Virus record (IMG/VR): IMGVR_UViG_3300033121_001033
Location: 1 to 64,000 of that record
Strand: one strand, 5' to 3'
From: a virus
Taxonomy: Duplodnaviria > Caudoviricetes
Length of the DNA stretch: 64,000 nt
Below, in pieces: positions 12,023-33,448 of the stretch. The notes under the pieces are model-generated. The model saw only the letters and a list, made by a program, of their open reading frames with translations, was not told the DNA's origin and did not search any database. Position 1 is the stretch's first letter. Every line of letters starts with the position of its first letter. A program made the translations under genes and the position numbers.

Positions 12023-12099
12023 TATTATTCTCCAAATATTATTATACCATAGATAATATCATTAACAATCAAAAACAAATGGAAACAAAAAAACCGGCA

Positions 12100-12795
12100 C
12101 TAGGCCGGTTTAGTTGGTTTCTTCCATTTGAATATTTCCAATTGTTTACCAGGATCTGGTGGTTTTTCATATATATCTATAACATCTGATACGCTTACCA
12201 GTCCTTGTTGTCGAGCTTTTATAAAAGTTTTAATTTCTACTAAAGACTGTATTAATTTTTGTTTGTCTTCATCATTTAATTTTTGTAAGTCTTGCTGTCT
12301 TGGTGCAACTAGAAATCTTGTACTATCATATATCTGTTTGCGTCTATAGACTTTACCTATTTTATCTTGAAATTTACCAACCTTTTCTGTTGAACCCCGT
12401 AGAAGACCCCATAATAAAGCATTTTCTCCAGCAAGAATAACCGCTAACGGTTTGATAATATTAAACTGTTGTTTAAAAAATGGAAAACATTTTCCGGGAG
12501 TGTTATCTTCTGGAAAATAATTCTTTTGTCCTCCATAACATTTCATTATATTAGTGAAGTAAACCTTTTCTGGGTCAATCTCAGCGTGTTGTAAGAGTTT
12601 GTCAAAAGCTTTACCGGAATTTCCAGTAAAGGCTTCATTGTTTTTATGGTCTGAATTAGAAGGATTTTCACCTAAAACAATAAGAGGAGACGCAGGGTCT
12701 CCTCGTGATATTGTTGGTTGTTCTCTTTCTTTAAAGAAAGGACACGCTTGACATAACTTTATATCAGTATAAAGTTGTTGTAGTTCTTTAGACAA
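12100..12795 (-). CDS. Uracil-DNA glycosylase, family 4 (Fe-S)
   Basis: CQACP, GENP (motif A), FTGNSG, TNIMKC, later Cys. Confidence 0.85.
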   Translation of the reverse strand: MSKELQQLYTDIKLCQACPFFKEREQPTISRGDPASPLIVLGENPSNSDHKNNEAFTGNSGKAFDKLLQHAEIDPEKVYFTNIMKCYGGQKNYFPEDNTPGKCFPFFKQQFNIIKPLAVILAGENALLWGLLRGSTEKVGKFQDKIGKVYRRKQIYDSTRFLVAPRQQDLQKLNDEDKQKLIQSLVEIKTFIKARQQGLVSVSDVIDIYEKPPDPGKQLEIFKWKKPTKPA

Positions 12796-14607: not shown

Positions 14608-14818
14608 CTATAACATCCATAATTTTAAAATCTCTAATATCTATTTCTTTACCACACCAAGGACAATACTTAAAGGCAATAACTGGTTTACCAGAAGGTA
14701 TTGTCACGTCAAACAACATGTAATCTGCTAGAATTGAATCCGATATTCCTGATTGTTCTTCGCTGATAACATCATATATAGTCACAATAACTTTTTCTTT
14801 CATCTTGCAGCAACTCAT
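14504..14818 (-). CDS. Small zinc-ribbon protein
   Basis: SCC and FKYCPWCGKEI motifs, acidic tail. Confidence 0.55.
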   Translation of the reverse strand: MSCCKMKEKVIVTIYDVISEEQSGISDSILADYMLFDVTIPSGKPVIAFKYCPWCGKEIDIRDFKIMDVIDEENDDLESWQKDSREIEEDKEEETEDGTDISEY

Positions 14819-15783
14819 AATGGAATTCTCTCACCTTCAATATCTTTTTTCGGAGGATCTCCGGGGGCTATTAATTTGAAACACCATTCTTTAACAGGAC
14901 AATACTTTGCTGCATCATCATTTTTACTTTGACATATTCTAGAACAGCTTTCAATTTTTGACATTGGAACTTGTTTCTTTTCATCTAAAATAGCTTGTAA
15001 TTCTAATGCTACTTTTTCACAATCTAAAATACGTTGTTCTATTTTATTCCAAAAAGCTTGGTCAAATTTTACAATAAATGGTTTGATATTTAATTTACCT
15101 GGTTTTATTCCATCTGGACCAAAAGCCCATTCGCATTGAGACCCTTTATTTTGATAAACTATTAATGTTTCTGTTGGACCCAATAATCTCATATACGCGT
15201 GCGCCTGTATAATATGTGATTCTTTTGGCGCTGTTATCGATTTAAAATCAGTCGGACTGGATGTTTTAAATTCAAAAATTCTTCTAACGCCATTTTTATC
15301 AATTAAAATTCCATCAGTATGACCGGTATATTTTAATCTTTTATCTTCTACCGGCAATTCACCATACAACATATTTTCTTGCCAAGGTGCGCCACATGGA
15401 CAATTTAATGGCATCGTTCCCTTTGTCTCTGTTTTACAAGATGAACAGGTCCAATCGCCATATAATTCACCCTTTGGCCCTAAATATCTATGTTGCCACC
15501 ACCAATGAAGTGCGTGACCAACATCGAAAGTAGCTTGCTGTCCGGCCTTTATAACTTCTTTTGGTGGCTTAAAAACATGATCTAACCAAATAGCTCTGGG
15601 ACATACACGAAATAATTCTGAGGCATGTAATCCAGGTGTTCTAACTCGTTGGTGTTTTGTTATATAATCGCCTTCTAACCATGAAGTAAAATCATTAAAC
15701 CATACCTCCGCAGTTAAATCTTGTTTTGGAGGATTATTGTCTTCCGGTTGTAGGAGATCCGCGATACCATCAAATAAACCCAT
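14815..15783 (-). CDS. Cas4/AddB-like PD-(D/E)XK exonuclease
   Basis: HASELFRVCPR, GHTDGIL, IFEFKT, QAHAYM, C-terminal Cys cluster (C..C...CPVKEWC). Confidence 0.8.
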   Translation of the reverse strand: MGLFDGIADLLQPEDNNPPKQDLTAEVWFNDFTSWLEGDYITKHQRVRTPGLHASELFRVCPRAIWLDHVFKPPKEVIKAGQQATFDVGHALHWWWQHRYLGPKGELYGDWTCSSCKTETKGTMPLNCPCGAPWQENMLYGELPVEDKRLKYTGHTDGILIDKNGVRRIFEFKTSSPTDFKSITAPKESHIIQAHAYMRLLGPTETLIVYQNKGSQCEWAFGPDGIKPGKLNIKPFIVKFDQAFWNKIEQRILDCEKVALELQAILDEKKQVPMSKIESCSRICQSKNDDAAKYCPVKEWCFKLIAPGDPPKKDIEGERIPL

Positions 15784-16175
15784 TAATTACTCGCAATTTT
15801 ATTTATTAAATTTTGAAATGTGTCCGAGGTCATAATAACCCAATCCTTGGGAATTGGGTCTTTTTGCCCTTCGAGTCTTAACTCGATTAATGGTGTTCTT
15901 TTTGTGGATAAAGCCTCGATAAAAATCTTCGAAAACCAATTACCTTGAAGAACCATTCCAGCACCGGATGTAGCCTTACATTCTCTAAGAAATGTAGCAT
16001 CATCTACATCGCCTGGTTTTCCTTTAATATTACCACTTCCGGGGGTCCTACGACCCCCAGATCTATTAGCAACAATTTTTTCATGTCTTTTTGAAATTTT
16101 AGTGGTAGGATCTTTTTGAAAATAATCTGGTTTTTTCTTGTTGCTTTCTTTGTTGAAATAATCAGGACTTTGCAT
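15783..16175 (-). CDS. Hjc-like PD-(D/E)XK resolvase/endonuclease
   Basis: HEKIVA..SGGRRTPGSGN..KPGDV....FLRECKAT. Confidence 0.7.
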   Translation of the reverse strand: MQSPDYFNKESNKKKPDYFQKDPTTKISKRHEKIVANRSGGRRTPGSGNIKGKPGDVDDATFLRECKATSGAGMVLQGNWFSKIFIEALSTKRTPLIELRLEGQKDPIPKDWVIMTSDTFQNLINKIASN

Positions 16176-16437
16176 TCATCTCTCGGATTAATTTTGAGTC
16201 TACATTAAGTTGATATCCATCGGAGGTGACTATAGTTGAAACACCATCTTGTTCAGATATTAATCCGACCATCATGGCACCCCACATTATAGTGCCCTCT
16301 TTTAATTCAGCTTTAAATAATGGTATATAACCATTCATAAACATAGTTCCTTCTGCGATACCATGTTTAGTTCTGATTCTATACATACACCAATTATCTT
16401 GATTTAATATAGAACATCTAATTAAAACTGGTTTCAT
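16162..16437 (-). CDS. Hypothetical protein
   Basis: 91-aa coupled ORF. Confidence 0.45.
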   Translation of the reverse strand: MKPVLIRCSILNQDNWCMYRIRTKHGIAEGTMFMNGYIPLFKAELKEGTIMWGAMMVGLISEQDGVSTIVTSDGYQLNVDSKLIREMNAKS

Positions 16438-17687
16438 TTACTTAATCTCTCAACTATTTCATTCCAAACTGCTTTTTGCATTTCTGGACTTGCAGCTAAC
16501 GCGGCTTCTAATTTTTCTTGTGTAGGTTCTTTCAAGTCCTTCCAGACATAACCTTCTTTGGTTTTTGTAAAAAGATTATAGTTCTTTCCATACGCAAAAA
16601 GACGTTCTACGTTATCAGGATCACCGACTCTGCGACCATGCGCATTTCTTAACCAATAGTTAAATGTTCCATAGCGACCTTTAGGACACATACTACTTTC
16701 GACTACTTTGAATTCTATTTCGGCATAGTCTGGGATCGCGTCTTCATCAGGAGTAAAACCTTTAGCGCCGCCACCAGCAGCTTTGTCTGTGAATTTTCCG
16801 TTACCATCGTCTACAAGATAGTGAACAGCACGTTTTGTGAATTTAATATCCAATGACGTAGCAAATCCTTGTCCTAATCCACCAGGAACAACGTCGGGCG
16901 AACCGTAACCATCTAATTTATTACGAATTTGATTCAATAATATAATTGTTGGCTTAGCTTTACCAGAGATTCCGCGTGCATTTAACGAAGATGTCCATTT
17001 GCGCATCGCTGAGTTAATAAGCATAGCGTTACGTCCCATAACTCCGCCATCTTCTGTAGCTTTATTAATCTCGGCAGAACTTACTACGTTAGCAATGGAG
17101 TCAAGTACTATAACACCAAATCCAGCTGATTCATCTCTAATAGCTGCGTCGATTAAGTCTACAACTTGCTCACCGGTTGGTGGTTGTTGAATCATAAGAA
17201 GATCCGGATGTTTAAATCCATGACCTAACATCCAACTTAAGTTATCACCTGATCGACCTTCGGCATCAACCCATAATACACCGGCAGGACTTCGATTATC
17301 ACAGTTACACTCTTCGCGTCTCATGCAAACAGAACAATGATTTTGCACTTCAGCAGCAGCATTTAATGCAGTCCCTGTTTTGGCTGATTTAGGCATTCCG
17401 AATAATCTGCACATTCGTCCTTGTGCTAGTCCGCCAAATGTAGCAATATCTAATGCAACATTACCAAATGAGATTCTAGGTACCTTAACATTAAGTTCTG
17501 ATGCCACACCGATATTTCCAGCCCACTTCTTTTGTGCAGCAGCTTTAAAAGCGCCAAATCCTTTATTTTCTCCTATTTTTTGTGCCGGTTTAACATTTTT
17601 TTCAGTTGTTTCTTCAACCTTTTCTGCTACTGTATCTTCGGACATATTTTCCTCATCACCTTCAGGATTCTTCTTTGGTCTTCCCAT
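16434..17687 (-). CDS. recA: RecA/UvsX-family recombinase
   Basis: GNVALDIATFGGLAQGR, LWVDAEG, VIVLDSIA, IILLNQIR, VVPGGLG...FATSLDIK; P-loop variant GMPKSAKT. Confidence 0.9.
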   Translation of the reverse strand: MGRPKKNPEGDEENMSEDTVAEKVEETTEKNVKPAQKIGENKGFGAFKAAAQKKWAGNIGVASELNVKVPRISFGNVALDIATFGGLAQGRMCRLFGMPKSAKTGTALNAAAEVQNHCSVCMRREECNCDNRSPAGVLWVDAEGRSGDNLSWMLGHGFKHPDLLMIQQPPTGEQVVDLIDAAIRDESAGFGVIVLDSIANVVSSAEINKATEDGGVMGRNAMLINSAMRKWTSSLNARGISGKAKPTIILLNQIRNKLDGYGSPDVVPGGLGQGFATSLDIKFTKRAVHYLVDDGNGKFTDKAAGGGAKGFTPDEDAIPDYAEIEFKVVESSMCPKGRYGTFNYWLRNAHGRRVGDPDNVERLFAYGKNYNLFTKTKEGYVWKDLKEPTQEKLEAALAASPEMQKAVWNEIVERLSK

Positions 17688-17697
17688 AATTCACCTA

Positions 17698-18066
17698 TTA
17701 CTTAGTTTTGTTTTCAGTTAATACTTTTTGAGTACGTCCCGTCAATTGAGCCAACGTTTGTTTAATTTCTGGAATATGCTCTTGAATCTTCTTGAAAGCT
17801 GCATCATAAGCCAGTTTAAAAGCTGCATCCATTTCTTCAATGTAACAGGGACGAGTAACACCAATTTCAATGCCTAGACTTTGATAATCCATACTAAGCT
17901 TTAAAGGAATGTGTACATGAACAGAAGCAGGAGTTGTTGCAAATTTATGAACTTCTAATGTTTCTTCTGTTGTATCAATTTTATCTATACCGTCTTTCAA
18001 TTTAGCAGTTTTCGTAACTGTCATCTTTGTAACTGCTATTTGTGAATCTTTTGATTTTGTAGCCAT
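17698..18066 (-). CDS. Hypothetical protein, lead gene of the recA operon
   Basis: 122 aa, strong AGGAG RBS, own promoter and structured leader. Confidence 0.6.
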   Translation of the reverse strand: MATKSKDSQIAVTKMTVTKTAKLKDGIDKIDTTEETLEVHKFATTPASVHVHIPLKLSMDYQSLGIEIGVTRPCYIEEMDAAFKLAYDAAFKKIQEHIPEIKQTLAQLTGRTQKVLTENKTK

Positions 18067-18121
18067 TTTAATCTCCTATATTAGCTTTTAGCGATACGCT
18101 GTAGCCACTATGATTATAACA
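18064..18121 (-). promoter_or_regulatory. Extended -10 promoter plus conserved 5' leader hairpin (copy A)
   Basis: TGtTATAAT-N6-GGCTAC AGCG TAT CGCT AAAAGCTAA TAT AGGAGATTAA aATG; near-identical element at 31146..31225. Confidence 0.75.
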
Positions 18122-18129
18122 CAATTCTA

Positions 18130-19500
18130 TTAATTTCTAGTAAACTTTTTAATCTCATGATCTTTACTTCTATAAAAAGCTTCACGTCTTTCCCATTTTT
18201 TCTTTGAGTATTCATTATTCTCATAGAAGTCTACTAATAATAGTCTTTCTCGATTAGCATCACCTTTATCTCTCAATCGTCCGGCTGGTTGTAAGGGATC
18301 TCCCGGAGGAGTAGCAAAGAATTCTGTATCCAAAGATGTAATATTTAAAGCGTCTCTGGCATAAGAAAATGTTGTAAAAATTACATCTCCTGCGACAGCA
18401 GTATCTCTAGTTGCTTTTTTCTGACCGCCGACCATTAATTCTACTTTAGTTTGCGGATAATCCTTAATTTTGGCTATTTCATTTTCAAACATTAATTTAA
18501 GTGTATCTAAGTGATTTCTTAATCTAGAGAAAACTAATATTCTGCGTTTTCCAGGTTGTCTGGCTTTTACTAGTTCCTCAACTATAATTTTATTTCTTTT
18601 ACCGTCTTTGGCTAATTTCTTATCATATTTAAGTGGGTCTGGTGGATAATTTCCCCATGCATCAGGTGTCCAACTTTTATAACTATTATATGGATAATCT
18701 ATATTTGTATTAATTCCGCATACTAATAATTTTGCTGTCTTTTTTTGAACTGTATGCCCTATTTCACCTAAATTCCATTTTATAATATTGGTTAAACCAT
18801 CTTTTCTATTAATATCAGCTGTGACAGCTAATCTATATTTTGCAGGAAATTGTCTCCAAACGGTTGACCATTTTTCACTACCAAATCTTTGTGTTTCATC
18901 ATTTATTATAAAACCAAATTGATTATAAAGTTCATCTGGATATTTTCTAGACAGTAAGCTTTGAATACTCATTAGAGTAATAGGTTTATTTAATATACAT
19001 TTATCTTGCTGTACTATTCCGATGTCTTCTTGTTTAATACCAAGAGCTTTCTCTGCTTCTTTAATCCAGTTATCAAACATATGCCCAGCATATATAAATA
19101 CACCAATAGAAGTATTAAATTTGGAAGCAATTGCATAACTTACTAATGTTTTGCCAAAGCCTGTACCTGCTATTAGTACTCCACCAAATTGCTGTTGTAA
19201 ATACTGCTCCATACTTTTAACAGCGGCTGTTTGACCACGACTCTCATCCAAAGTAGCAATAAAATTAAATTTTTGTGGTATTCCTGTTACTGTAGTATCC
19301 GTATATTGTTGATTTAATTGCTTTCCAAAAGCTCTTGGCACCCATAAATATTTATCATCTTCATGATAGGAACAAACAGTAAATCCAGGATTATCTTTCC
19401 AGGCTTGGGCCTCAAGAGTTAATTGTTTTTTAATGTTTTCTTTTTGTTGTTGTGTGAGTCTATTAAGGCTAATTCCATAATCTGCATGTAAGCAATCCAA
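18130..19500 (-). CDS. SF2 helicase (UvsW/XPB-like)
   Basis: GTGFGKT, INDETQ, VTA motif III, QPAGRLR motif VI; TTG start. Confidence 0.85.
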   Translation of the reverse strand: MDCLHADYGISLNRLTQQQKENIKKQLTLEAQAWKDNPGFTVCSYHEDDKYLWVPRAFGKQLNQQYTDTTVTGIPQKFNFIATLDESRGQTAAVKSMEQYLQQQFGGVLIAGTGFGKTLVSYAIASKFNTSIGVFIYAGHMFDNWIKEAEKALGIKQEDIGIVQQDKCILNKPITLMSIQSLLSRKYPDELYNQFGFIINDETQRFGSEKWSTVWRQFPAKYRLAVTADINRKDGLTNIIKWNLGEIGHTVQKKTAKLLVCGINTNIDYPYNSYKSWTPDAWGNYPPDPLKYDKKLAKDGKRNKIIVEELVKARQPGKRRILVFSRLRNHLDTLKLMFENEIAKIKDYPQTKVELMVGGQKKATRDTAVAGDVIFTTFSYARDALNITSLDTEFFATPPGDPLQPAGRLRDKGDANRERLLLVDFYENNEYSKKKWERREAFYRSKDHEIKKFTRN

Positions 19501-30208: not shown

Positions 30209-30389
30209 TTAAATCCTCATGTTATCTATTATTATTTAAAAGTTCCGACAAATTTCGTGAGTATAAAAGAATATACATTTTTTCACTATAGAGATAACAA
30301 GAATCGAACTTGTTCTGTTGCCGTATGAAAGCAATTGATCGCCACGATCTATATCTCTAAATGCCGCAGAATTAACTGCGGCTAATTTT

Positions 30390-31148
30390 TCAGAATGGTA
30401 TATCGTTATCTGAAGCGGCTTCAGCAATTGCAGCAGTTGCAGCCGTATCTTTACGAATTTGAGCAGCTACTTGTTCTAACTCTTCAAATGACATTGGTTT
30501 TAATACCTCATCATAATTGAAAGGAGTTAAGTACTTCTCAACAGTTGTACCATAATCCGCAGCGGCTTTGCTGTAACGTTCAGCTAATTGAGCCTCTGTT
30601 AATGGATTACCATTTGGTAACCACATATCCCCAATTCGTGGAGTTTTTTGGTCAGTTCCTCTCGAAATTGACCACTCACGACCACGCCACGGAGTAAATT
30701 TTGATACTAATTTCTTCATAGCTTCTAGTTGACGAGCGTTAACTAGAAGTAAACGACGTTGATCTTTAATCACTCGTCCTTTATTTTTACCTGAAGGAAT
30801 TTCCCATTCTGAACCGTCAAGAATTGTTCCCGCTGTAAACCACTTGCCTTTTTCGCCTGTGGCATCACAAACTGGACAACCTTTCTTTGAGAATTGTGAA
30901 ATACAAACTATGTTATTACTGAAACTATTGTTAATCTTAACGCCTTGGTGCATACGAACTGAAAATTCGAATGGTTTTTCGTCAAGAGTTGTTCCGGTTA
31001 CTTCACTATTGAGACGAACTAAGAAAGGTGAAACTTTCTTTTGTGTCTCTCCTACCTTTTCAGATAGAACGTATTCAAGTTTCTTAAAGCGACTTCCGGT
31101 TGCATTTGGTGTTGGGGGTGGACCGCCTGATCCTCTAAATGTAGTCAT
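30390..31148 (-). CDS. Single-stranded DNA-binding protein, T4 gp32-like
   Basis: H...VC.....GCPVCD zinc-site pattern, ISRG..K..R.GD.W, acidic C-terminus DNDIPF; adjacent to primase and helicase. Confidence 0.75.
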   Translation of the reverse strand: MTTFRGSGGPPPTPNATGSRFKKLEYVLSEKVGETQKKVSPFLVRLNSEVTGTTLDEKPFEFSVRMHQGVKINNSFSNNIVCISQFSKKGCPVCDATGEKGKWFTAGTILDGSEWEIPSGKNKGRVIKDQRRLLLVNARQLEAMKKLVSKFTPWRGREWSISRGTDQKTPRIGDMWLPNGNPLTEAQLAERYSKAAADYGTTVEKYLTPFNYDEVLKPMSFEELEQVAAQIRKDTAATAAIAEAASDNDIPF

Positions 31149-31225
31149 TTGTTAATCTCCTTATTTAGCTTTTAGCATTATGCTGTAGCCATTGTTATAC
31201 TACACGACCTCATGTAGTATGTCAA
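31146..31225 (-). promoter_or_regulatory. Sigma70 promoter plus conserved 5' leader hairpin (copy B)
   Basis: TTGACA-N17-TAGTAT-N6-GGCTAC AGCA TAA TGCT AAAAGCTAA ATA AGGAGATTAA caaATG. Confidence 0.8.
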
Positions 31226-31246: not shown

Positions 31247-33448
31247 TCACTGAGATAAATCATGAGAAAATTCAACTTTTTTACCAAGAACATACTTGGC
31301 GGAATTAAATAATCTCACGATGTCTTCTGCTGGAAGATTGCCGGGATCTTTTTTAGATCCATCTTCTAATAGATCTATAGGGCATTCTATTAATTTAATA
31401 GAAACTCTTCCTTGTAACATTCTATGTATCTTTTTTGTCATTGTTCTACCTGGACCATCACCATCCATAAAAATATAAACATATGGTGGATTAAAAGAAC
31501 AAATAGTGTCTGCGTGTTCTTTAGAAAAACCCTCGCCAAGAACAGCAACAGAGCACGCCATTGGATACAAAGCCTGATCTGTTTTAACCACTCCTGTAGC
31601 ACCCTCAACAATAACAATTGGTTTGTTTGGTTCTAATAAATGCTCGCCAAGAAGATATAATTGCCGATTAAAATTATCGTAATTATGATGTCTTCTTTCA
31701 GCTTGATTTGTTATATCTCTGCCCTGCATTCCGACTAAATTTTTATCTTTATCTCTAATTGGAAAAACTAATCTTTTTAATTTTACATCGTGGCCCAAAG
31801 ACCAACGTTCTGCTGTTTCTGGTTTTATTCCACGCTCACTAGCGTATGAAGGTAAAGGATGTTTAAAATCATCCCATCTCGATTCTGGAATTATATCCTT
31901 AGATTTAATAATTTTCTTCTTAAGAGATTTTTTCTTACTTTTATCTAACAATGATTCCAGTGTAACGGCTTCTGTTTTTTGAACAGACTCCAGTAGTTCT
32001 TTATGCTCTGTTCCGTCTAGTGCTAGTTCTAGCATTTTGGCCCATGAGCCTTTAAAACCGCATGAACCAGAAAAACACCTAACAACACTTGGGCCATCTG
32101 GGTCGATTTTTACACTACAACCCATATTATGATCATATGGATCTTTATGTCTTAAAGGGGCCAAAGGACAATTTTTAACAACTACTGATCCCACTATATA
32201 ACTTTCGTCATTTTCAACAGTCATATTATATACTAAAATGTCTTTAACTTCTTTAGTTACAATTTCTTTAATAGGATATGTCATTTTATTAAGTATTTTT
32301 TGACCAACACATTGGTCTTGTGTATCCGCCCAACATACTTCATAACTCTCTCTATGGTGAACTCCATTTTTATCAATTCTTTCTGCACGAGAAGTTCTTC
32401 TACACGCTATTCCAAGAGATCCAAGTAGTATAGGTAATTGAAAACTCATTGTAATTGATGTAGTACTTATAGATTCCCATTTACCGGCTTTTGTCGATTT
32501 GCTACCTGCATACCTACATCCATCTCCTGCTCGTAGTCCTTCTAAAAATGCTTTTTTAATCTCGATGGAAGATGTCATAATGAACTCTGGTATAATTTTG
32601 TTTGGTGCTTTATGACCTAGTATATATGGAAGCCATCGCGCTATAAAACTATTATAGATATATACTCTTTGCGTATTATGTTCGGCATCTGTACGTATCG
32701 TTGGCGTTTCATTAAATATATTTTTTATTAATTTAGTACATTTTTTAACACTCGGTTCTCCATTTCTAAATGTAAATCCAGTGTAGCTGTATCCACTTCC
32801 TATATCTCCAGTAGAACATCCCTTAGCCGACCACAATCCTAGCAAATGAGCCAATTCTTTAGACAAATAAACCTCGGGACATGACTTTCTATGTTTTCTT
32901 AATTTTCCTGTAGACGTTCTTGTATTAAATAATAGTGGATCTATCAAAGGAACTAATATATCTTTATTTGGAATAAAAGGTAATACGAGTCTATCTTTTA
33001 TCTTTAAAGTCTTAATTTCAGACAATTCTTCTGTCGCATGAATTTTTGGAGGTACATCATTTATTTTAACTGATTCTTTACCAGAATTTGAAATTTTAAT
33101 ATCTTTTCGAAGTTTTATAATATCATTATTTTTATAGTTATAAACCCTGTGATTATCAGTACTTGTAATAGAATAATTAAGTCCTTTAAAAGATGTAGTT
33201 ATTAAATTTCCGGTAAACGATTTAACATGAGTAGCTTTAACTTTTTGGTAGCCGCTTTCATGAGTAAGTACATAATCACCTATTTTTATCTTATCAATAG
33301 GAACTAATCCTTTTGATGTCATAACAGGTGTACCTTTAGGAAAACAACTTATTGATATTTGTGGACCAACCCTCTCGTTATTATCACGAACATGAGAATA
33401 ACTAAGTTTAAGTTGATTACAAATTTCTACTATCCCTTCGAGATCCAT
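31247..33448 (-). CDS. DNA primase (zinc-binding + TOPRIM) interrupted by an intein
   Basis: Spliced product about 341 aa: ..ISIS|CPLAPLRH...CFSGSC zinc finger, LVFPIRD, QGRDI, IVEG, FMDGD. Confidence 0.85.
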   Translation of the reverse strand: MDLEGIVEICNQLKLSYSHVRDNNERVGPQISISCFPKGTPVMTSKGLVPIDKIKIGDYVLTHESGYQKVKATHVKSFTGNLITTSFKGLNYSITSTDNHRVYNYKNNDIIKLRKDIKISNSGKESVKINDVPPKIHATEELSEIKTLKIKDRLVLPFIPNKDILVPLIDPLLFNTRTSTGKLRKHRKSCPEVYLSKELAHLLGLWSAKGCSTGDIGSGYSYTGFTFRNGEPSVKKCTKLIKNIFNETPTIRTDAEHNTQRVYIYNSFIARWLPYILGHKAPNKIIPEFIMTSSIEIKKAFLEGLRAGDGCRYAGSKSTKAGKWESISTTSITMSFQLPILLGSLGIACRRTSRAERIDKNGVHHRESYEVCWADTQDQCVGQKILNKMTYPIKEIVTKEVKDILVYNMTVENDESYIVGSVVVKNCPLAPLRHKDPYDHNMGCSVKIDPDGPSVVRCFSGSCGFKGSWAKMLELALDGTEHKELLESVQKTEAVTLESLLDKSKKKSLKKKIIKSKDIIPESRWDDFKHPLPSYASERGIKPETAERWSLGHDVKLKRLVFPIRDKDKNLVGMQGRDITNQAERRHHNYDNFNRQLYLLGEHLLEPNKPIVIVEGATGVVKTDQALYPMACSVAVLGEGFSKEHADTICSFNPPYVYIFMDGDGPGRTMTKKIHRMLQGRVSIKLIECPIDLLEDGSKKDPGNLPAEDIVRLFNSAKYVLGKKVEFSHDLSQ
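32171..33346 (-). mobile_element. Intein (392 aa) with LAGLIDADG-type homing endonuclease
   Basis: Block A CFPKGTPV, block B TDNHRV, blocks C/E LGLWSAKG and FLEGLRAGDG, block F VYNMTVENDESY, block G VVKN followed by Cys+1. Confidence 0.9.

Follow-up and report, generated by a model that had tools for sequence, protein, structure and literature searches.

A two-tier hairpin at the predicted 5' ends of a gp32-like SSB message and a recombination-operon message in an uncultured phage is very probably a control element

Do the messages for a single-strand DNA-binding (SSB) protein and for a RecA-type recombination operon of one phage begin with the same small RNA structure, and if so, what might that structure do? 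The question is raised by the viral record IMGVR_UViG_3300033121_001033 (G000), which comprises 72,461 bases at 35% G+C and is judged to be about 18% complete; its first 64 kb (64,000 nucleotides) are the stretch analysed here, referred to as the window. An earlier note on this DNA had described the same layout at two loci, and both copies are indeed present as it wrote them when the minus strand is read. The 26-nt block GGCTACAGC-N5-GCTAAAAGCTAA has exactly two matches in the whole 72,461-base record, both within the window (18081-18106 and 31165-31190) and both on the minus strand. The same genome-wide pattern found no match in any of 100 dinucleotide shuffles, with a chance expectation of 0. 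Each block starts 6 nt past a -10 box and ends 16-18 nt ahead of an ATG, so that GGCTAC does fall at the expected +1 position, behind a 6-nt spacer in both copies.

Copy A is headed by an extended -10 promoter, TGtTATAAT (18121-18113, minus strand), read from the sequence, which has no good -35 element and lies across the 3' end region of the helicase gene upstream, whose stop is at 18130-18132. It continues with the spacer catagt, the block GGCTAC AGCG TAT CGCT AAAAGCTAA (18106-18081), the Shine-Dalgarno (SD) sequence AGGAG (18077-18073) and the ATG (18066-18064). Copy B, also on the minus strand, has a promoter with 10 of 12 matches (31197-31225), made up of TTGACA (31225-31220), N17 and TAGTAT (31202-31197), then the spacer aacaat, the block GGCTAC AGCA TAA TGCT AAAAGCTAA (31190-31165), AGGAG (31161-31157) and the ATG (31148-31146). 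As continuous sequence, 18106-18081 is GGCTACAGCGTATCGCTAAAAGCTAA, followed by tat, AGGAGATTAA and ATG, and 31190-31165 is GGCTACAGCATAATGCTAAAAGCTAA, followed by ata, AGGAGATTAA and ATG. From +1 through the AGGAGATTAA ribosome-binding block, whose end is a few bases from the ATG, 33 of 39 positions are identical between the copies. The likeness begins one base before +1 and stops at the ATG; the 40 nt upstream agree at 16 of 40 positions, which is the random level, and the two promoters are of different types. Transcription starts at G18106 and G31190 are predicted from the -10 spacing. No terminator was found ahead of either promoter, so read-through from the upstream genes is possible. Within copy A the octamer TGGCTACA occurs twice on the minus strand, at the -1/+1 junction of the leader (18100-18107) and across the start codon of the 122-aa gene (18060-18067), and the start codon of copy B carries TGACTACA.

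The gene behind copy B (30390-31148, minus strand) encodes a 252-aa protein, P0002, with a CPVC zinc-type motif and an acidic C-terminal DNDIPF tip. P0002 has no Pfam match. The top PDB matches of its AF2 model (pLDDT 81, 11 homologues used) are the gp32 proteins of T4 and RB69, with a Foldseek probability of 0.97-0.98 and a VIA Z of 6.9-7.8 over 165-188 residues, the next unrelated fold reaching 4.5. Rhodobacter phage RcDurkin has a remote homologue, which carries the annotation T4 gp32-like and is found in the same primase-SSB-helicase order. As judged from the modelled fold, P0002 is confirmed as a gp32-like SSB, which bears out the placing of copy B before an SSB gene. The element is accordingly a 5' leader of a gp32-family SSB gene, a feature that it shares with the T4/RB69 operator. 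Directly behind ssb lies a tRNA-Met (CAT) gene (30288-30359, minus strand), preceded by a G+C-rich hairpin (30363-30382) and probably belonging to the copy B transcription unit. The primase gene upstream of ssb (31247-33448, minus strand) carries Hint and homing-endonuclease domains before its Toprim/DnaG core, which indicates an intein.

Copy A heads a recA-type operon, as the note had said, the RecA/UvsX-like recombinase gene (16434-17687, minus strand; Pfam RecA 3.2e-25, PHROG UvsX-like 3.8e-38) being the second gene. A 91-aa ORF stands between it and a resolvase gene (15783-16175, minus strand), which is followed by a PD-(D/E)XK/Cas4-like nuclease gene (14815-15783, minus strand) and by more genes on to a candidate terminator at 12111-12091. 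The RecA-resolvase-Cas4 order is the same in RcDurkin. The strongest intrinsic-terminator candidate on the operon strand is this one (12091-12111, minus strand; 8-bp stem with 5 G-C pairs and a clean T run), and it is the probable end of the copy A transcription unit; other minus-strand matches inside the operon, such as 12704-12684, are weaker consensus hits in a scan that returned about twice as many matches as in shuffles. The first gene after copy A (17698-18066, minus strand) encodes a 122-aa protein, P0001, with no assigned function, for which Pfam, PHROGs and Atlas gave nothing usable. This protein had been taken for a ribbon-helix-helix (RHH) protein, but it has neither an RHH signature nor a Pfam match, and its AF2 model, of low confidence (pLDDT 50), has four strands and one long helix.

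The two leaders are predicted to fold alike, as ((((..((((...))))...)))) in both the MFE and the centroid structure, with a G-U first pair. The hairpin of copy A, GGCU AC AGCG UAU CGCU AAA AGCU (18083-18106), and that of copy B, GGCU AC AGCA UAA UGCU AAA AGCU (31167-31190), both on the minus strand, start at the predicted +1 and score 47.9 bits each with the covariance model CM R2; pair probabilities in copy A are 0.88-0.99. The outer GGCU/AGCU stem encloses the inner stem as the note proposed, and the G-C to A-U swap that it had seen to preserve the inner stem is at the fourth inner pair. This compensatory swap is the sole stem difference between the copies, and the unpaired positions of the hairpin are all identical but one loop base. 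An unpaired A-rich spacer with the SD follows, at 18067-18082 in copy A (AGGAG and then AUUAAA, 16 nt from hairpin to AUG, SD unpaired probability at least 0.97) and at 31149-31166 in copy B (AGGAG and then AUUAAC, 18 nt). At -6.3 and -5.5 kcal/mol (z of -0.8 and -1.0), both stems of G000 are weak and no better than those of shuffles, and folding energy alone therefore does not stand above chance; the case for the element is one of repetition, position and comparison with relatives, not of folding energy. Neither leader type is a known RNA family: there was no Rfam match at gathering thresholds in the 64-kb window, and relaxed Rfam scans of both leader types gave only chance-level matches (E of at least 0.5).

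Relatives of this phage are few. IMG/VR scans returned two records only, a 98%-identical twin of G000, in which both leaders are unchanged, and IMGVR_UViG_3300019487_000040 (G001). A metagenome scan added two short contigs, L111 and L112, a scan of genome contigs for relatives gave nothing, and GenBank phages contributed only remote Rhodobacter and Rhizobium phages. The clade of G000 is rare. Two relatives whose SSBs are only 39-53% identical carry the same two-tier hairpin at the predicted +1. The ssb leader of G001 reads TGtTATAGT-aatagt and then GGCUAG GUCA AUAG UGAC AAG AGCC, and that of L112 reads TATAAT-cagtcc and then GGCUAA GUC AAUCAC GAC AAG AGCC; both fold better than shuffles (z of -3.5 and -2.5, respectively). 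The ssb leader of L111, TATATT-ctagt and then GGUUAGCGAAUUGCUGAAUUUCCAGAAGCU, fits a hand alignment and thermodynamically prefers another pairing register. The G001 orthologue of the 122-aa gene is preceded by TGgTATAAT-atagata-GGCUAAAAGCUC. This recA-operon leader keeps GGCTA...AAAGCT, has lost the inner stem and has essentially no stable fold, and looks, from its sequence, like the G000 leader minus the inner stem-loop. The fully shared leader is therefore specific to the G000 lineage, and the two G000 leaders are much more alike than the two G001 leaders. CM R2 gives no score to L111, to the G001 recA-operon leader or to RcDurkin. In all six leaders (two each of G000 and G001, L112 and L111) a -10 hexamer lies 5-7 nt ahead of GG(C/U)UA, the start sites being predicted.

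The A-rich tract downstream of the hairpin is 16-22 nt long, unpaired, and contains at most one UUAA. In the ensemble, the SD of the G000 and G001 leaders has an unpaired probability above 0.9, and three of the four SD bases of L112 are unpaired as well, so occlusion of the ribosome-binding site (RBS) by RNA folding alone is unlikely; the free SD points to a protein reader and not to control by folding only. The firm members are predicted to fold as simple nested two-tier hairpins, and by inspection their loops (UAU, UAA, AUAG and AAUCAC) share no complementarity between loop and downstream sequence.

Pattern and covariance-model searches found no third copy in G000 or G001, except for one antisense match inside the ssb coding region (window 30996-31030, plus strand; GGUUAC UUCA CUAU UGAG ACG AACU and then AAAGGUG). 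It forms a two-tier hairpin (CM R2 23.5 bits, E of about 0.0015), has no upstream -10 box, no ORF behind it and no counterpart in G001, and is probably a chance match. Several other structured elements were seen in and around these genomes. In the soil relative L112, a strong 9-bp hairpin, which itself starts with GGCTA, has its end exactly at the ssb promoter's -10 box (L112:4078-4103). The SSB homologues of remote Rhizobium phages have a different and far more stable structured intergenic leader (L127:1081-1170 and L134:218-274); that of RHph_Y1_11 reaches -24.6 kcal/mol over the 73-nt stretch that was tested against shuffles (z of -2.85) and -32.9 kcal/mol over the whole 90-nt intergenic region. 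Outside the window, at 66.5-72.4 kb of G000 (L125:6500-12461), a unit of about 60 nt, in which CTTAGCGGGCCT follows a hairpin, is present at least three times among small ORFs and on both strands; these units may be phage-specific promoters or terminators.

The note had proposed looking for covariation in related phages, and compensatory changes are found there. A search with a covariance model of the two G000 copies recovers the ssb leaders of L112 and G001 and aligns them to the same eight pairs. In the resulting alignment of four rows (copies A and B, G001 ssb and L112), all 31 scorable pair cells pair, whereas sliding the partners by 1-3 columns, as a control, lowers the share of pairing cells to 11-37%. 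In the inner stem, both partners have changed together at three of four pairs (AU/GC, GC/UA and GC/AU), and the first outer pair is G-U in some rows and G-C in others. With its few rows, and fitted to the structure as it was, this alignment is supportive and not statistical proof: copies significant by covariance model come from three independent lineages only (G000 with its 98% twin, G001, and L112), and the covariation amounts to about 2-3 phylogenetic events. The G001 and L112 hairpins are identical at 21 of 25 positions, against 46% identity for the SSB proteins, 46.5% for their coding DNA and 24.5% at third codon positions (P of about 1e-4). The hairpin is thus under stronger constraint than the gene, its unpaired positions included, so the sequence and not the fold alone is under selection, which suggests a specific binder.

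This conservation bears on whether the hairpin needs a binder at all, as the stem could simply pair the first nucleotides of both messages and block 5'-end-dependent decay (by RppH/RNase E or RNase J1), giving high and lasting expression with no specific protein. Stabilisation of mRNA by 5'-terminal stem-loops is well established (ompA and papA of E. coli, and the B. subtilis aprE leader; references in PMC3997798), and those of ompA, papA and aprE are of similar size. Like them, the leader has a small hairpin followed by a strong and accessible SD, and from the predicted starts this hairpin would begin at or beside nucleotide 1. In all firm members the first predicted nucleotide is already part of the stem, the SD stays free, and SSB and RecA-type proteins are needed in bulk. 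However, the known stabilisers act through structure alone and a generic one needs nothing else, whereas here the same sequence is found on two operons, the unpaired nucleotides (internal loops, GGCUA, AAGAGCC) are conserved far above coding DNA, and the two G000 copies share nearly all of theirs. The G000 stems are, moreover, marginal, and the G001 recA-operon leader has retained the words and not the fold. Stabilisation as the whole explanation is therefore unlikely, although it is compatible with an operator role. Whether the element acts as RNA or as DNA can be judged from its geometry. A DNA operator, which the note gave as its alternative, would consist of inverted repeats just past the -10 box, to which a repressor dimer of phage or host origin binds and so stops RNA polymerase at both promoters, as a phage analogue of LexA boxes. 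LexA/SOS boxes are one DNA operator common to bacterial ssb and recA, and the element is like them in placing one cis element at both an SSB gene and a RecA operon. Both stems are also DNA palindromes at +1 to +24, the classic repressor position, and paired changes in half-sites would also be expected of a homodimer site. Yet a palindromic operator of the LexA type has a fixed dyad geometry, with concentric dyads, constant spacing and unbiased imperfections, and none of these is seen. In the four firm members, 3, 3, 4 and 6 nt separate the inner half-sites; the constant 2-nt/3-nt internal loop offsets the inner and outer dyads by 0.5 bp, so that they are not concentric; and six of the seven imperfect stem positions are G-U (G-T in DNA) on the sense strand, with one A-C and not an even mix of the two, in a count that includes the by-eye rows of L111 and RcDurkin. 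Variable loop length, off-centre dyads and the G-U bias together favour an RNA over a DNA operator, and the recurring hairpin with compensatory changes in relatives weakens the alternative further. No repressor-type Pfam or PHROG match was found among the few neighbouring genes scanned, and to our knowledge the sequence is unlike the known LexA box types. A DNA operator is for these reasons improbable.

Two further explanations are both very improbable. The shared leader might be a relic of duplication or gene conversion, a promoter-proximal stretch copied between operons with no role of its own. That the two G000 copies are so much closer to each other than the two G001 leaders fits copying in the G000 lineage, but their promoters are unrelated, their only stem difference is compensatory, and the hairpin has been kept across genomes whose synonymous sites are saturated. 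Near-identical hairpins heading two operons also recall lambda nutL/nutR, and a phage factor on the nascent hairpin might modify RNA polymerase, or a nuclease might cut read-through transcripts, which are likely to carry the hairpin internally as no terminator precedes either promoter. Against a nut-like or processing site stand the fixed distance from the -10 box, which argues for a primary 5' end, and the lack of a boxB-like GNRA-type loop and of a boxA-like partner. Antitermination would also have little to act on, as the one strong terminator candidate of the operon strand stands at its end and the matches inside the operon are weak consensus hits. The reading of the earlier note, a structured RNA leader, thus holds in that the leader lies at the predicted +1 of two promoters and shows compensatory changes in relatives, while the antitermination role that it listed finds no support.

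Other readings of the same bases were tried and rejected. Translation of a mini-ORF or leaderless message, ATG/GTG GCT ACA GC... from 2 nt before +1, lacks an SD and has no conserved counterpart in G001, L112 or L111. Three nGCUA(A/C) words occur in each G000 leader, and this cluster is real in G000, but the ssb leaders of G001 and L112 have one word only, so the hairpin explains more than repeated words do. GGCTA at +1 is not a general promoter feature, as it is absent from the other promoter-like regions of G000 and G001. The ssb leader of RcDurkin has a by-eye likeness (GGU C UACGG ACA CUGUA AAA ACC, 4 nt after TATATA), and was not accepted as a member, since CM R2 gives it no score.

We regard the shared hairpin as very probably a genuine control element, of a general kind that is known. 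By analogy, the G000 leader most resembles the T4/RB69 gene 32 operator in miniature. In T4 and RB69, gp32 represses its own mRNA by nucleating on a structured element, a pseudoknot, and then spreading over an unstructured A/U-rich tract that overlaps the RBS (PMC3014915, PMC535899). As in T4, T2 and RB69, the element here is in the 5' leader of a gp32-fold SSB gene, is specific to its gene class within the genome, and has its structured part on the 5' side; an unpaired A/U-rich stretch leads from it into the RBS, though a shorter one than in T4. Unlike the T4 operator, it is a plain 24-nt two-tier hairpin and not an H-type pseudoknot, and its tract is 16-22 nt with at most one UUAA in place of about 40 nt with several UUAA. 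It also lies at the very 5' end of the predicted primary transcript and has a second copy on a RecA-type operon; it has no sequence similarity to the T4 operator. The operator of T4 gene 43 (DNA polymerase) has a hairpin tens of nucleotides upstream of the start codon and an RBS-overlapping sequence, and is read by a replication protein (PMC3014915). It is alike in having a hairpin upstream of the start codon, but concerns another protein class, there is no homology, and the reader is only putative here.

We consider the chances about even that the leader is a protein-read translational operator of the gp32 type with a 5'-end-protecting side effect. Such an operator would be a cis-acting RNA, a 24-nt two-tier stem-loop whose outer 4-bp stem begins with the first G of the transcript. 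Above this stem there would be an A-rich internal loop, conserved and asymmetric, with 2 nt on its 5' strand and 3 nt on its 3' strand, and then an inner stem of 3-4 bp closed by a small loop. The SSB mRNA would start with this stem-loop, as would, in G000, the recombination-operon mRNA, and 16-22 unpaired A-rich nucleotides including the SD would lie downstream. A reader protein, most probably the gp32-like SSB once free single-stranded DNA (ssDNA) is saturated, would recognise the hairpin and spread onto the adjacent unstructured RBS, throttling the synthesis of SSB and recombination proteins together, and the base-paired 5' end would shield both long-lived messages from 5'-end-dependent decay. 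We infer the transcription starts, the action at the RNA level, the binding partner, the direction of regulation and the co-regulation of the two operons. Particular to this case are the two-tier architecture at +1, with its conserved asymmetric internal loop, the second use of the leader at a RecA-type operon, which is the new point, and the vestigial trace of this second copy in G001. That vestigial second copy, a matter of retained words, suggests that the link between the two operons is old. A wider reading is tentative and somewhat doubtful: the leaders may form a small post-transcriptional regulon, in which the gp32-like SSB would sense free ssDNA and set the output of SSB and of the recombination operon (RecA-like protein, resolvase and Cas4-like nuclease) through the same leader. 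The regulon would do at the RNA level what the bacterial SOS system does in coupling ssb and recA, and would be older than the split between G000 and G001.

That gene 32 of T4 controls itself is textbook knowledge, but this regulation has been studied almost only in T4-like phages, where it concerns a single gene. Here the leader belongs to a very distant SSB of gp32 fold from an uncultured phage clade, and its structure is different, much smaller and better conserved than the protein. If the hairpin were a stabiliser only, it would be an ordinary feature apart from its unusual sequence conservation. If the proposed binding is true, a phage could, by copying a 24-nt RNA, bring several operons into one regulon under feedback of the SSB type, and the leader would be a compact and portable operator and 5' stabiliser for the control of expression.
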